Positions 9,176 to 13,873 of a stretch of DNA of 15,585 bases are shown here, in pieces; positions within the stretch are counted from its first letter, which is position 1; each line of letters opens with the position of its first letter. The translations under genes were made by a program, and so were the position numbers. Source of the DNA: Bdellovibrionales bacterium (GTDB lineage Bacteria > Bdellovibrionota > Bdellovibrionia > Bdellovibrionales > JAGQZY01). The stretch covers positions 1 to 15,585 of the forward strand of contig JANPLN010000007.1 of NCBI GenBank assembly GCA_031426555.1, written 5' to 3'. Under the pieces are notes generated by a model. The model saw only the letters and a list, made by a program, of their open reading frames with translations, was not told the origin of the DNA and ran no database searches.

Positions 9176-10369
9176 ATGTCTTTGAAGGAACTAAAAATTT
9201 TAATGATTCTCATTGAGCCTCCGTTGCCCTTTGGCAATGCCGGAAGCCGCTGGTTCCATGTTCTTATCAAAGGTCTTGATCGTCGCGGCCATAAGGTCGA
9301 CGTATTTGTGGTGAGCGGCGTGCCGTCAGACATCGAAAAGGCTAAAAAAATATTTGCGGCACGGGAAAATTTTTTTATTTTCCCCTTTGGCAAAAATAAG
9401 GGTTTTTTTGATAAAATGAAAACGTTTTTGTTTCCTCATCGCTATATCTTTAATACGGATGCTCGAAAAAAGTTTCTGGAACTTAAACCCGAGTCCTACG
9501 ATATCATGCATATCGAACAAACCTGGGCGGGCTGGATTGGCTTTCAACATAAAAACAAAACCTTGATGAATGTTCATTTTTTACAAGCCATCGATCTTGG
9601 ATCCACTCGGCCAAAAAGTTGGAAAATGTGGATGCTCACAAAAAGTTGGTTTTATGCCGAAAAATTTATTTTAAAACAGTATCCATTTATTCGCACGTGC
9701 TCGCCCCGCCTCACCACGGCGATTCGCGCCTGGGATACCGCGCGCCCCATGGTCACCACTGTTCCCTTTTCTTTGGATCTTTCGTTGTACCCATGGATTG
9801 CCGTCGAGAAACGCCAAAACCGCCGCCCCATCATCACTCTGATTGGTGGAATGACCTGGTATCCCTCGGTGTCGGCAGCCGAACGAGTTCTCAGCGAACT
9901 ATGGCCCGAAATAAAAAAGCTAGTTCCAGAGTCCCTCTTGAGAATCGTTGGCTGGTCTGCAAGAACGGCTCTCAAAGATTACCTCCACTCACCAGATGTG
10001 GAAATTCTAGAAAACGTAGCGGACATTCAACCGTACTTTGAAGAAGCCTCGGTGATGTTGTACGCGCCGGTGCGCGGGAGCGGTATGAAGATCAAGGTTC
10101 TTGAGTCCTTGGCGTTTGGAATTCCCGTGGTCACCACCAGCGAAGGGGCCGAGGGGTTACCTGCCGAGGATATGGTGCACATGGGCTTGTGCGAAGACAA
10201 CGCAGGGCTGATCGCGCGCACGGTAAGAATTCTGCGAGATCCTGAACTGCAAGAGGAATTGCGGAAAAACGGACGGCAATTGCTTGAAAGTCATTGCGGC
10301 GAAGACAAAACCGTTACCGAAATCGAAGCTATTTACCAGACAATGCTCCAACCAAAGGACGACCAATGA
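9176..10369 (+). CDS. GT4 glycosyltransferase
   Basis: N-terminal PPLPFGNAG and the C-terminal GSGMKIKVLESLAFGIPVVTTSEGAEG motif typical of EPS-associated GT4 enzymes. Confidence 0.88.
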   Translation: MSLKELKILMILIEPPLPFGNAGSRWFHVLIKGLDRRGHKVDVFVVSGVPSDIEKAKKIFAARENFFIFPFGKNKGFFDKMKTFLFPHRYIFNTDARKKFLELKPESYDIMHIEQTWAGWIGFQHKNKTLMNVHFLQAIDLGSTRPKSWKMWMLTKSWFYAEKFILKQYPFIRTCSPRLTTAIRAWDTARPMVTTVPFSLDLSLYPWIAVEKRQNRRPIITLIGGMTWYPSVSAAERVLSELWPEIKKLVPESLLRIVGWSARTALKDYLHSPDVEILENVADIQPYFEEASVMLYAPVRGSGMKIKVLESLAFGIPVVTTSEGAEGLPAEDMVHMGLCEDNAGLIARTVRILRDPELQEELRKNGRQLLESHCGEDKTVTEIEAIYQTMLQPKDDQ

Positions 10370-11115
10370 TGCTATTGAACTTCACAGCTTTACTCATCTC
10401 CTGCTTTTTAGCCATTGCCATCGAACCTGCCATGGCGCCTGTTCACGTTTTGTATCAACGAGCTGGGGTACTCACCTATGGCGCCGTCAGTGCCCAACAA
10501 GTGAGTGATCCTGCAAATACCAATCTCATCGTTTCCTACGAACGATACATCAGCGCGCTCAACCTTTCTGCAGGATCAGATAGTGTTTCGCGGCAGAATT
10601 TAAGTTTCGAGCTGCCGCAGCTGCAAGCCCCTTTTCACAACCAGCAACATGTCCTTAAAAAAGGCGTGATTGTTTTGGGTAAGGACAAAAAGCCGTACTT
10701 GGTAGAAGCGGTTTTTCCCGACAACAAAGTGGTTCTTTCTCCTCTCGAGGTCAACCCCAGCAGTGGTAATCGATTGGAGAATACTAATTTCGCACCCATC
10801 CGGCGCCAAAATGTACAAATTGTGTCCACCACCGACATTTTCGCCGTAGAGCAAACCTGCTTTCTTCGCCAGTATTGCAAAGGCCAAACCCTGGCGCGAA
10901 TCAACGACATTCCCATCTGCGAGGCCTACGCCCTTCGCAACAACGCCACCCCCAGCCTGAAGGTGAAATGCGGCCGCAACACAAAATTTGCCGGGGCCGC
11001 CATCAATGCGGTTTTTTCCGATGGAACACTGATGCTTCACCATACGCTGATCAATCCATTTCCCGAGTCGGCATGGAAATACCAACCTGAGACCACCCCC
11101 ACAACGGCGCAGTAA
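10366..11115 (+). CDS. Hypothetical exported protein with two degenerate beta-rich repeats
   Basis: ATGA overlap with the GT stop gives start 10366 (MMLLNFTALLISCFLAIA, a hydrophobic signal-like N-terminus). Internal similarity between VEAVFPDNKVVL and INAVFSDGTLML; four Cys in the C-terminal half. Confidence 0.7.
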   Translation: MMLLNFTALLISCFLAIAIEPAMAPVHVLYQRAGVLTYGAVSAQQVSDPANTNLIVSYERYISALNLSAGSDSVSRQNLSFELPQLQAPFHNQQHVLKKGVIVLGKDKKPYLVEAVFPDNKVVLSPLEVNPSSGNRLENTNFAPIRRQNVQIVSTTDIFAVEQTCFLRQYCKGQTLARINDIPICEAYALRNNATPSLKVKCGRNTKFAGAAINAVFSDGTLMLHHTLINPFPESAWKYQPETTPTTAQ

Positions 11116-11126
11116 GATTATGATAA

Positions 11127-11140
11127 TTTCCGTGAGGAAA
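11127..11140 (+). terminator. Small GNRA hairpin followed by a T-rich tract; possible weak terminator of the upstream operon
   Basis: TTTCC-GTGA-GGAAA lies 11 nt after the stop at 11115 and is followed by CTGTTTTGTTGGTTT. Confidence 0.3.
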
Positions 11141-11178
11141 ATTCACTGTTTTGTTGGTTTCTTTCTGTATGAAGTAGC

Positions 11179-11214
11179 CAATCTGTGGAAAAGTTCAATC
11201 TGTGGAAAAGTTCA
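11179..11214. repeat. Perfect 17-bp tandem repeat containing DnaA-box-like 9-mers
   Basis: CAATCTGTGGAAAAGTT at 11179-11195 and 11196-11212. Each copy contains TGTGGAAAA, one mismatch from TGTGGATAA. Confidence 0.8.
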
Positions 11215-11223
11215 TCCTGAACG

Positions 11224-11243
11224 AAAAGGGCCGCTGCCCTTTT
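11224..11243. terminator. Intrinsic terminator, potentially bidirectional
   Basis: AAAAGGGC-CGCT-GCCCTTTT is a perfect 8-bp inverted repeat with U-tracts on both strands. The minus strand continues UUUUCGUU. Confidence 0.7.
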
Positions 11244-11259
11244 AATCCCGTTTCGTCTG

Positions 11260-11386
11260 ATCTTCCTGATCAGCCGAGCACCAGTCGTGCAATCCTCCTG
11301 GTAAGCCGTGCTTCAGAGCCAGTCATGCAATCCTGCTGGTTAAGTAAGATTTGCTTCAGAGCCTGTCGTGAATTTTGGCTCCGAAG
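11260..11386. repeat. Degenerate tandem repeats of ~38-43 nt
   Basis: CCAGTCGTGCAATCCTCCTGGTAAGCCGTGCTTCAGAG (11281-11318) and CCAGTCATGCAATCCTGCTGGTTAAGTAAGATTTGCTTCAGAG (11319-11361). Partial copies CCTGTCGTG (from 11362) and ATCTTCCTGATCAGCCGAGCA (11260-11280). Confidence 0.8.
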
Positions 11387-11410
11387 ACGCTGTACAAAGT
11401 CTCTTTTTTG

Positions 11411-11636
11411 AAAATAGGTTTTTAATAAATATTTTTTGACAACAGTCATTAGTTCTTGACGCTTGTTTTGTCTCTTTAAATCTTCTTCATTGGGGTTTTT
11501 GTCGAAAACTCACCAAGCGGTTAATGTGATTAGAATTTCTCTGTGGGGCAAAGCTGTTACCGCGGTTTAAAACACGATAAAGAGTTGTATCTGGTAGCGG
11601 TCTTATTTTTTATTTCCTCCAAAAATAGGTTTTTAA
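11411..11636. repeat. 15-bp direct repeat pair in the AT-rich region upstream of the transposase
   Basis: AAAATAGGTTTTTAA at 11411-11425 and 11622-11636. Confidence 0.65.
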
Positions 11637-11685
11637 AAATGGATGTATATTGTTTTTTTAAAAAGAGAAAACAGAGGAGAAAACG

Positions 11686-12165
11686 ATGGCCAGACAAATG
11701 AGCTTTTTTAAACCAACAGTTAAAGAATTTGGTGGATCACTTTCTGTAAAGGGAAAACGTAAAGCAGCGCGAGTTCTAGATAGTCGTAAACCATTGCATT
11801 TTGTTTTGAAATCTAAGAAAAGTGCAAATCTTTATTCCCATCGAGTTCTTCTTCGTAAACCCCTTTATCTTTATGCGAAAAGATTTGGGATTAAAGTTTA
11901 CAAGGAGAGTGTTCAAAAAGATCATTTCCACTTTTGCATAAAAATCACCAATCGCGAGCTTTATCGAGGGTTTATTCGTGCGCTGACAGGAGTTATTTCG
12001 CAAAAGCTTGGAAAAGGAATATGGGCATTGATTCCCTACTCCCGTATAGTGTCTTGGGGGCGGGAGTTTTTTGCGGTTCTGGATTACGTTTTGTTAAACG
12101 ACTGCGAGGTTAGCGGCATGGTGCCTTATGCCATACGCAGTCCAAAGAGAAAACCTCCTCCTTAA
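11686..12165 (+). CDS. Y1 HUH transposase-like protein (IS200 TnpA / REP-associated tyrosine transposase fold)
   Basis: 159 aa and basic. PLHFVLK strand, HUH motif DHFHF, W...YSRIV segment and candidate catalytic helix DYVLLN (YxxxN). SD GAGGAG upstream; no tnpB adjacent. Confidence 0.78.
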   Translation: MARQMSFFKPTVKEFGGSLSVKGKRKAARVLDSRKPLHFVLKSKKSANLYSHRVLLRKPLYLYAKRFGIKVYKESVQKDHFHFCIKITNRELYRGFIRALTGVISQKLGKGIWALIPYSRIVSWGREFFAVLDYVLLNDCEVSGMVPYAIRSPKRKPPP

Positions 12166-12377
12166 GGGCTTAGCACCGACCTTGCACCAATCAGCTGGTT
12201 ATCCACTGGCAACAAAAAGAAGAAAGAGCGTTAAAACTGTTGAAAATGACGACAGTTCTGTAGCCTTTTCAGTCCGCTATGATATTGGTTTGCTTGTGGC
12301 CAAACTTACTTTATACATCATCCCACTCAATCAGCCTACTTACTCTCACTCTGCTTTGATTGTTTTGGAGCCCCTAA

Positions 12378-12737
12378 ATGCGTATCTCTCTTGTCGCGAT
12401 TCTTGTTTTAACTTTCAACATTACTTGGGCTAGCGACTTTTCGATCATTGTATGCGATCCGTTGGCGTCTGCCGAAGTCCATCTCCAAAATCAAAACGAA
12501 ACGAGCGAAGGCTCGCAACTTCTCGCCTATCGTGGGCGAATTCAGAATTTTATTAAAAACGCACAAACGTCCCTCGAAAGTAGCCTAAAAATCAACGATA
12601 CGGCATCCATTGCCATTACGTGTGGCATGGTGGACGACGCAACTCTGGGCTTTACACGTCCCTGCCACTCTGATTCTGGCGAAGTCCTGGATGTTAAATC
12701 AGTCGAAAAGCTTTGCAAAGAGATCGCCAACAAATAA
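12378..12737 (+). CDS. Small secreted hypothetical protein with four Cys
   Basis: SD GGAG and signal peptide MRISLVAILVLTFNITWA. The four cysteines are compatible with two disulfides; the gene ends 6 bp from the convergent rlmN stop. Confidence 0.72.
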   Translation: MRISLVAILVLTFNITWASDFSIIVCDPLASAEVHLQNQNETSEGSQLLAYRGRIQNFIKNAQTSLESSLKINDTASIAITCGMVDDATLGFTRPCHSDSGEVLDVKSVEKLCKEIANK

Positions 12738-12743
12738 GTGCGC

Positions 12744-13781
12744 TCAACAGCGTGTATTGAGCTGCCCGCAGGCTGCCAAAACACGCTCGCCTTTTGTAGA
12801 CCGCACTGTCACCGGAATTCTATATGTTTCTAAAATCTTTTGCAGGTGTAGAACCTTTTCCTCGGAGGGGCGTCGATACACCGAGCCCGGATAGGGATTA
12901 AAAGGAATCAGATTGATAAACGCCCGACGATCTTTCAATAGCTCCCCGACCTGATGAATTTCTTCATCACTGTCATTGTAGCCATCCAAAACTAAATACT
13001 CATAGGTTACAAAGCGCTTCTTCTCCTGGGGAATTCTATCCAGAAGTGGTAGAAGTTTTTCGAGGGGATAACTCTTGTTAAGTGGTATCAGCTGATTGCG
13101 CTTTTCAGCGATCACAGAATGCAGAGATAAAGCCACGTTCACATTGGGCATTTCGGCTTTCCAGCGCTCGAGGCCCGGTAAATAGCCCGCTGTGGAGACC
13201 GTGATTTTATGAAAACCAATACTCAATCCATGCTGAGACAAAAATATTTCACAGGCTTTTCGAACCGCATCAAAGTTATGTAGCGGTTCTCCTTGCCCCA
13301 TAAATACAATATTTAAAATTCGATCATCCTGGGGACGATTTTTGCTGAGCCACTTTTGAATCTGCACAAACTGGCCGACGATTTCTTCGGTTTTAAGATG
13401 CCGGGTAAACCCTTGGGCTCCGGTGTAGCAAAATGAGCATTTCATGGCGCAGCCGACCTGCGACGACAAACACACCGTGTATTTATTTTGAAACGGAATG
13501 AGCACGGACTCCACTTGTTCTGTGGACGACAGACCAAACAAAAACTTTACGGTTTTGTCGTCGCTTTGTTGAATCTCCGCAATTGGGGGCAGGGAAAAAC
13601 TCAGATATTCGCTCACGAAGGATTGATTTTTACTGGAAAAATTATGTAACAGACATGGCTCGCTCTGAAGCTTCTTATAAAACCAATTGAACAGCTGGCT
13701 CGCCCCCTCGAGGGGCAAATTTTTGCTCTCTAAGAGTGAACACAATTCGCCAAATGGGAGTGAGTAAAAAGGGAGTTTCAC
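12744..13781 (-). CDS. rlmN: RlmN/Cfr-family radical SAM RNA methyltransferase
   Basis: DKTVKFLF, VCLSSQVGCAMKCSFC (CxxxCxxC plus upstream Cys), MGQGEP, ALSLH, NLIPFNP and C-terminal AACGQL. The start is either GTG 13781 or TTG 13811. Confidence 0.9.
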   Translation of the reverse strand: MKLPFYSLPFGELCSLLESKNLPLEGASQLFNWFYKKLQSEPCLLHNFSSKNQSFVSEYLSFSLPPIAEIQQSDDKTVKFLFGLSSTEQVESVLIPFQNKYTVCLSSQVGCAMKCSFCYTGAQGFTRHLKTEEIVGQFVQIQKWLSKNRPQDDRILNIVFMGQGEPLHNFDAVRKACEIFLSQHGLSIGFHKITVSTAGYLPGLERWKAEMPNVNVALSLHSVIAEKRNQLIPLNKSYPLEKLLPLLDRIPQEKKRFVTYEYLVLDGYNDSDEEIHQVGELLKDRRAFINLIPFNPYPGSVYRRPSEEKVLHLQKILETYRIPVTVRSTKGERVLAACGQLNTRC

Positions 13782-13873
13782 AGGCTTTGGATGTAGTCGA
13801 AGTCGCGACAAATGTCTAGGCTCGAGTCCACTGCTTCTCTCTCAACAGATTGCGCCCTACAATCTAAGTACCG

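Follow-up and report, generated by a model that had tools for sequence, protein, structure and literature searches.

A dispersed GGA-loop hairpin module associated with mobile DNA elements in Bdellovibrionales

INTRODUCTION

The closest described counterparts of the hairpins considered here are TwoAYGGAY (RF01731), which is listed in a table of PMC2864571, and Bacillaceae-1, both of which are described as dispersed, multicopy, covarying hairpins with GGA-type loops that have been proposed to bind CsrA (PMC4333381). According to a preprint, TwoAYGGAY varies in copy number and occurs with tandem repeats on its 5′ side and as divergent doublets (bioRxiv 10.64898/2026.09.22.753630). The repeat of CsrB reads CAGGA(U/A/C)G, and CsrA sites require GGA (PMC7652899). 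The presence of FliW is described as anti-correlated with the BarA-UvrY/sRNA system, and that account leaves open what sRNAs do where FliW is present (PMC4682653); in B. bacteriovorus CsrA represses a GGA-bearing leader (PMC13443453).

REP/REPIN elements are the other close counterparts, and further relatives are to be sought among mobile DNA. Y1 genes with flanking inverted repeats have been described as TIRYT genes, and the passage of the same paper that deals with CGTC-type REPs reports them without a dedicated transposase (PMC3733652); regulatory RNAs have been described from IS200 (PMC4513863, PMC5435999).

We describe here a chain of minus-strand hairpins at positions 11200–11400 of a 15,585-nucleotide stretch of a Bdellovibrionales genome, the whole of which we call the window. 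A preliminary description had read these hairpins as a CsrA-titrating sRNA embedded in a polysaccharide locus. We find that they are a variant of a dispersed GGA-loop hairpin repeat tied to mobile DNA, and its conserved part appears, from the genomes compared, to be an undescribed and strongly covarying hairpin repeat of Bdellovibrionales lying inside three unrelated transposon types. A literature search, which covered few subscription journals, found no account of this module or of a Csr sRNA in Bdellovibrionales.

METHODS

G000 is the genome carrying the window, the other G-numbers are the genomes compared with it, and G003 is the sister species; C-numbers denote contigs and L-numbers the element or module loci read in the compared genomes. 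The genus alignment comprised 27 module copies from three genomes, with the non-homologous row C54 left out; a 28th copy was found later. Loops were counted in the 14 genomes with clear matches, and the weak matches of G082, G083, G123 and G138 were left out. An AlphaFold model of TnpA had a mean pLDDT of 48.5 and was set aside.

RESULTS AND DISCUSSION

The hairpins arrived with a mobile element

The preliminary description tied the hairpins to the surrounding polysaccharide locus, but this tie does not hold. In G003 (contig C33) the genes of both flanks are adjacent and a block of about 1.08 kb is absent, and contigs of three other DNA runs (X2–X4) have the same empty form of the site; the hairpins therefore arrived with the insertion and are foreign to the polysaccharide cluster, within which the position of the element is incidental. 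The sequence is present at nine other sites in G000, and by blastn positions 11201–11278 are 95–98 % identical to eight other copies in that genome. The inserted element (Table 1) consists of imperfect inverted ends, a hairpin module, tandem repeats, a promoter region and a Y1 tnpA gene.

Table 1. Coordinates of the element and its hairpins within the window
Feature	Position	Strand	Remarks
TGTTG	11152–11156	+	Again at 12238–12242; single in the empty site
Whole mobile element, ~1.08 kb	11157–12230 (ends approximate)	+	Empty orthologous site; 11 tnpA loci
Left end	11157–11209	+	CTTTCT-N7-GTAGCCA..TGTGGA(A/T)AA
H1, GUUC-AGGAU-GAAC	11210–11222	-	Plus strand shares CATCCTGA with the REP-like repeat of the genome
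H2, AAAAGGGC-AGCG-GCCCUUUU	11224–11243		The claimed terminator; 8-bp stem; symmetric, stem covaries, U-run not conserved
H3	11253–11277	-	10-bp stem; loop AGGAN here, ACGAN in six other genomes
Stem	11257–11273	-	6 bp, extendable to 11253–11277
Stem	11280–11302	-	5 bp
Stem	11319–11339	-	4 bp
Stem	11354–11386	-	Nine Watson-Crick pairs and one G-U
Tandem-repeat segment	11280–11386		Copy-specific source of the extra GGA hairpins; units of 39 and 43 nt and a decayed third
Conserved upstream region	11436–11660	+	Gap-free; two TTGAC boxes 20 nt apart, phased T-tracts
Y1 (HUH) tnpA-like gene	11686–12165	+	159 aa; DHFH and YVLLN motifs
Right end	12199–12230	-	TTATCCACTGGCAAC..AGAAAG, inverted counterpart to the left end

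The ends of intact copies are imperfect inverted repeats that read CTTTCT-N7-GT(A/T)GCCA..GTGGATAA, and the left end of the window copy contains a private 17-nt duplication (11181–11197 and 11198–11214). The window copy has no full 9-bp target duplication, the TGTTG flanks being a possible remnant of one. Seven copies had both ends scored for flanking repeats: L006 has a perfect match (9/9 bases), L002 and L007, which represent one shared site that is empty in G000, match at 8/9, L005 and L008 at 5/9, and the window copy and that at C25:58841 have none. A target duplication is clear at two independent sites. HUH peel-and-paste transposition is not known to produce such duplications, and we therefore infer a DDE enzyme for the outer unit. 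Mutator and IS4/IS5-type transposases were considered as the mover and rejected, there being none in G000, G001 or G003, and those of G004 and G005 have no convincing matching ends. A search for ISL3 transposases gave none in G000 or G001 and only contig-end fragments in G003.

An ISL3 element of G024 is similar in part to the element described here, with the same right-end tip (GCCTCTT), an internal TGTGGATAA box and the same module at the same place, and with duplications of 8–9 bp at some copies. The usual target duplication of ISL3 elements is 8 bp. The two differ in that the box lies 7–10 bases further from the tip, and in that neither our element nor G000 contains an ISL3 transposase, the cargo being a Y1 gene. 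The element is an odd one, with an HUH transposase gene bounded by inverted ends and target duplications.

Several further features may be recorded here. In G004 a 1.8-kb contig that has no tnpA carries a near-perfect copy of the right end (L133, G004:C12:171–191), separated by about 750 bases from an HNH-like gene downstream. The ORFs flanking the element in the window (10366–11115 and 12378–12737) have no Pfam or NCBIfam match and are found in 2/5 and 1/5 congeners, respectively, and the minus-strand gene at 12744–13811 encodes an RlmN-family radical SAM methyltransferase above the NCBIfam cut-off, of which relatives have a second paralogue at about 40 % identity.

The tnpA gene and its upstream region

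The product of tnpA matches Pfam PF01797 (Y1_Tnp) with 27.2 bits (cut-off 23) and falls below the cut-off of the NCBIfam IS200 model (18.5 bits against 55); the best match among PDB sequences had an E-value of only 0.37. There are 11 close tnpA loci in G000, of which four are broken, and the copies share only about 76–83 % protein identity. The conserved region upstream of the gene, which includes GGGGC(A/G)AAGC at 11545–11554, is likely to be a promoter/control region. A hidden ORF was rejected, since stops occur in all six frames among the copies listed, and GGGGC(A/G)AAGC was rejected as a sigma-54 or sigma-28 site or a c-di-GMP riboswitch, because the corresponding consensus is not conserved across the aligned copies and no Rfam match was obtained.

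At one site shared by two species (L104, the tnpA copy at G000:C72:27766, and L011) a long 9-base tandem repeat stands in place of the module, and several copies (L141, L142 and L022, G005) have a long inverted repeat, TTTTTTTAAAGAAAATGAATCGGGGGT ... ACCCCCGATTCATTTTCTTTAAAAAAA, between the promoter region and tnpA. Multicopy HNH-like genes of G000 (C68:24882, C24:13369, C66:382, C8:58591, C2:133936 and C15:76772) have an upstream layout like that of tnpA, in which TTGAC precedes a TTTTAAAA..TGT(T)ATA box by about 190 bases, with GTCAATCCGG ahead of it in several; the upstream regions of both kinds of gene are possibly a common control region of mobile genes.

The hairpins of the window

The minus-strand stems listed in the preliminary description are all present (Table 1), and so is the GGA asymmetry that it pointed out in 11244–11400, where the minus strand has six and the plus strand none. 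A 6:0 asymmetry is uncommon in G000 (10 of 1350 non-coding tiles) but is reached in 184 of 2000 dinucleotide shuffles; tandem duplication accounts for part of it. The minus strand folds better than its shuffles (z −2.84, 2/200), and the plus strand folded as DNA does so too (z −3.34, 0/200). The extra hairpins were rightly attributed to tandem duplication, the units being 11280–11318 and 11319–11361 with a decayed third. A seventh GGA hairpin, which had been missed, is H1 at 11210–11222, on the 3′ side of the claimed terminator.

Other parts of that description fare less well. The GGAs were thought to be exposed in loops, but in the predicted RNA ensemble of 11200–11400 only one of seven (11266) is wholly unpaired, two are partly unpaired and four are paired, including the CUUCGGAG GGA and that of CGGGAU, which had been regarded as single-stranded; CGGGAU is found in 3/27 module copies of the genus, and also in G013. 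A terminator had been placed at 11224–11243, but none was called in a scan of 11000–12500, and the supposed U-tract is a run of only four that pairs with an A-run. Nor is this tract conserved: in 8/27 copies H2 is a compensated variant ending in only three U, and the run, three to four long, is absent in several lineages. The many-site sponge is likewise not borne out by other copies, for 15 of the 20 that could be delimited have no minus-strand GGA between the module and the promoter region. The segment between H3 and the promoter region is made up of tandem repeats (8–151 nt in the copies measured), and the motif of the two middle hairpins is present in only three of the ten G000 copies. Rfam searches of the window (up to E 5) and of 11100–11700 (up to E 10) gave no match to a Csr or Rsm family, and nothing approached the gathering score in scans of the window, of 11100–11700 and of eight loci.

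A conserved three-hairpin module

The conserved part is a 72-nt module (11207–11278) with the order H3-linker-H2-H1. G000 has ten copies, G003 thirteen and G001 five, and all 28 are upstream of a tnpA match. Covariation of the stems, which had been proposed as a check, is clear in a widened alignment, where 13 of 21 pairs are changed on both sides and 97.6 % of cells are paired; none of 500 shuffles scored as high, although the alignment is structure-fitted and its rows are related.

The module differs from the rest of the element in the degree to which it is kept. At shared insertion sites it is 89–99 % identical (nine same-type pairs), and the corresponding values are 55–97 % for the end, 61–92 % for the promoter region and 81–92 % for tnpA; among type A paralogues the module is 93 %, tnpA 82 % and the promoter region 72 % identical. 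High conservation is also seen beside broken tnpA genes (4/11 in G000) and decayed ends. This pattern is also compatible with selection acting on an RNA. At two shared sites different species carry different module types (for example C66/L012), a visible sign of copy-to-copy exchange, which could keep the module uniform without host selection. Outside the element end, L096 (G000:C20:30520–30750) and L147 (G001:C258) contain an array of ~40-base tandem units made of H1 and half of H2, most of which have lost the TCC/GGA loop.

Distribution and genomic contexts

A second covariance model matched 18/151 Bdellovibrionales genomes, and a phylum-wide model search matched 3/151 genomes, all within the same order and none outside it. 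A first pattern scan found no matches in metagenome and viral contigs, a second found one in metagenomes and none in viral contigs, and a plasmid scan returned only matches of 29–33 bases.

The contexts are varied. In G013, which belongs to another genus and has no tnpA match, the covariance model found six copies, the best kept of which are elements of ~320 bp with both ends and no tnpA. G024 has 20 equal-scoring copies; at the two loci read, which are 99.7 % identical, the module lies inside the left end of an ISL3 element, with an 8-base duplication at one of the two. In G099 the module is situated behind istB of an IS21 element. Head-to-head doublets are present in G032, G052, G088 and G108; at two loci in G052 the module is within about 90 bases of a distant Y1 gene, and in G108 it is 1 kb from one. 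Some genomes also have stand-alone copies between genes.

Loop sequences, CsrA and FliW

The expectation that the GGA loops would be kept in homologous loci holds for the most part for H1 (13 of the 14 genomes, and 23/27 genus copies) and only in part for H3, which has GGA in seven genomes, CGA (ACGAN) in six and both in one, so that GGA is dispensable in H3. In G147 the loops are swapped, with CGA in H1 and GGA in H3. The module loops read N(G/C)GAN throughout. Among non-coding perfect hairpins of G000 with CA-NNN-TG centres, GGA/TCC is found 28 times, CGA/TCG six times and the next class five times, and CA-GGA-TG and CA-CGA-TG centres interchange within other repeat families. A REP-like repeat that has 15 copies in G000 and 10–96 in five relatives begins with CNTCCTGA as well; on our reading of the literature this repeat is CGTC-type. 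This interchange, together with CNTCCTGA in the REP-like repeat, points to a loop signature common to several dispersed repeats.

The idea that this TnpA drives the CGTC-type REPs was considered, 4/29 REP matches in G005 being within 500 bases of a tnpA, but it was not adopted, since G002 has 96 REPs and one distant Y1 gene. We note that REP copies of this type are found directly beside tnpA relatives at G005 C9:69, C9:639, C34:5930 and C2:12225, and at L144 and L052 in G004.

As the preliminary description required, G000 has a csrA gene (C1:44917), in the order flgK-flgL-csrA-fliW, and the two conserved module loops match the CsrB repeat CAGGA(U/A/C)G. csrA was found in eight of nine module-bearing genomes tested, the miss being G001 (80 % completeness, five modules); G002, G005 and G009 are csrA-positive and gave no module match, and csrA was not found in G004. 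A genome-wide search of G000 for a better Csr sRNA candidate, using a crude ORF mask, found at most three loop GGAs per 200-nt window and nothing CsrB-like. A non-coding stretch in the flagellar cluster (C1:40851–41050, plus strand) has seven GGAs against none on the other strand, three of them in predicted loops, and contains AACCAAGGATGG twice; judged by its sequence it is the likelier natural CsrA target or ligand. The leader at C71:32330–32500 (plus strand), ahead of a gene that we take to be flagellin-like from its N-terminal pattern, has several GGA motifs, as expected for a CsrA-FliW circuit.

Relation to described systems

Like TwoAYGGAY and Bacillaceae-1, the module is dispersed and multicopy, with covarying hairpins and GGA-type loops, although there is no covariance match to RF01731 in the window, in 11100–11700 or at eight loci. 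Its loops are mostly 5-nt N(G/C)GAN (AGGAU/AGGAA here, with AUGGAU only in H1 of G036), it has a third hairpin between the two and no basal stem, and it is found inside defined IS ends. With CsrB/CsrC and RsmX/Y/Z it shares CAGGA(U/A/C)G hairpin loops and two sites about 50 nt apart; it differs from them in having only two conserved sites, one of which is CGA in many lineages, in the lack of a conserved terminator, in its FliW-type host and in being part of mobile DNA.

The likeness to REP/REPIN sequences and their RAYTs lies in short palindromes beside a Y1 gene, in inverted doublets and in swapping between sites, and H1 has CATCCTGA in common with the REP-like repeat of these genomes. All ten G000 copies are, however, linked to tnpA, free copies and doublets being found only in other genomes. 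Compared with a REPtron, the element has an HUH/Y1 gene (PF01797, above cut-off), but only one module on one side of tnpA, hairpins without a GTAG foot, about 11 tnpA copies per genome, target duplications and no GGGGWSAS motif in its ends. The TnpA motif is YVLLN, whereas that of RAYTs is given as Y---NP (PMC6006769). As in TIRYTs, a Y1 gene lies between inverted repeats. A small Y1 transposase and hairpins near the left end are also features of IS200/IS605, which are not known to have terminal inverted repeats or target duplications; the present element has inverted ends and 8–9-bp duplications, its protein is below the NCBIfam IS200 cut-off and it lacks a Y---Q motif.

Possible roles of the module

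On balance, and by a reading of sequences, we think it likely that the module does not titrate CsrA as an RNA but acts in cis, as a signal of mobile DNA that is REP-like and read on single-stranded DNA. A Y1 (HUH) enzyme, for example the neighbouring TnpA, would bind or nick the hairpins on single-stranded DNA, and in this way the module would be spread and exchanged among copies. An ISL3-like DDE transposase acting in trans probably moved the outer unit at some time; such an origin would account for both the inverted ends and the 8–9-bp target duplications. The diversity of contexts (Y1-tnpA, transposase-free, ISL3, IS21 and doublets) counts for this reading, as do the csrA-positive genomes without the module. 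So do the insertion at a site that is empty elsewhere, the many tnpA-linked copies, the target duplications, the covarying structure, the CGA loops of H3, the loop centres and the CNTCCTGA sequence found in other dispersed repeats, and the different module types at shared sites. Several observations count against it. G013 and G024 yielded no close Y1 gene, ISL3 copies without the module are present in G004 and G013, and target duplications are absent or decayed in 4/7 copies with both ends scored. Relatives of tnpA in G004, G005, G007, G009, G011 and G023 are without the module, which must thus be dispensable for that enzyme family. The high identity of the module at shared sites, the presence of at least one GGA loop per module in each of the 14 genomes, and the excess of G-U over A-C pairs when the minus strand is read (13 against 5, in a fitted alignment of related sequences that makes the count weak and biased) are likewise adverse. 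One alternative is that mobile elements carry, in the module, a small RNA with one or two CsrA-binding sites that is transcribed from the minus strand; 10–20 copies per genome would then add up to a sponge, and the duplication in the window copy would add sites. The H1 and H3 loops of the genus match CAGGA(U/A/C)G and vary only at the base that follows GGA, the GGA of H3 is wholly unpaired in the predicted ensemble, H1 keeps its GGA and reads as a near-perfect CsrA site in nearly all genomes, the module is more conserved than tnpA, csrA accompanies it in all but one of the genomes tested, and AT-rich stretches lie ahead of H3 in many stand-alone copies; in addition, the CsrA of B. bacteriovorus acts on a leader with GGA (PMC13443453) and CsrA binding has already been proposed in print for TwoAYGGAY (PMC4333381). 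We nevertheless consider such an RNA unlikely. The H3 loop is CGA in 6/14 genomes, there is no conserved terminator and H1 lies beyond H2, a promoter scan between the module and tnpA found no sigma-70-like minus-strand promoter, and the extra GGA units are private and mostly paired. Doublets leave about 25 bases between two 5′ ends, most csrA-bearing relatives searched gave no module, and csrA adjoins fliW, a gene described as anti-correlated with the BarA-UvrY/sRNA system (PMC4682653).

Slightly less probable again is the suggestion, drawn from the same comparisons, that Y1, ISL3 and IS21 elements each acquired the module because 10–20 transcribed copies titrate a FliW-type CsrA of the host; if so, it would be a CsrA-antagonist RNA outside the Gammaproteobacteria that is spread by mobile DNA, and would link TwoAYGGAY-like repeats directly to named transposases. 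We would place a little lower still the possibility that the module insulates transcription or affects RNA stability at the edge of the element, transcripts that enter from host genes being stopped or structured by H2 and its neighbours on their way into the transposase gene. In favour of this, the Y1 element and the G024 ISL3 both have the module inside the left end, ahead of the transposase gene, H2 of type A is flanked on each side by A- and T-runs, and about half of the G000 copies are so placed that a host gene reads into the module (from crude ORF calls); but no terminator was called, the U-run of three to four is missing in several lineages, in IS21 the module is downstream of the genes, and the conserved loop sequences, doublets and stand-alone copies are left unexplained. 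Least probable by far is the proposal from which this work started, a many-site CsrB/RsmY-like sRNA of 150–200 nt that is specific to this locus and controls the surrounding polysaccharide genes. Six GGAs on one strand, the stems and the presence of csrA speak for it, yet the sister-species site is empty despite the same flanking genes, the extra hairpins are confined to 3/10 copies in G000, a single GGA of seven is predicted to be wholly unpaired and Rfam gave no Csr/Rsm match up to E 10; its locus-specific part is already contradicted by these data.

The module offers a small test case for a question raised for TwoAYGGAY, namely whether hairpin repeats with GGA loops bind CsrA, act as signals of mobile DNA or do both, and the natural GGA and CGA variants of the same loop are a built-in control. 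It also advises caution, in that GGA-rich hairpins in these genomes may stem from repeats and are not necessarily Csr sRNAs. Other dispersed repeats of G000 include AAAGGTAC..GTACCTT with 55 matches, TTTGGGACTCATTGCA with 18 and CTGCGGAACTCGTTTT with 14.
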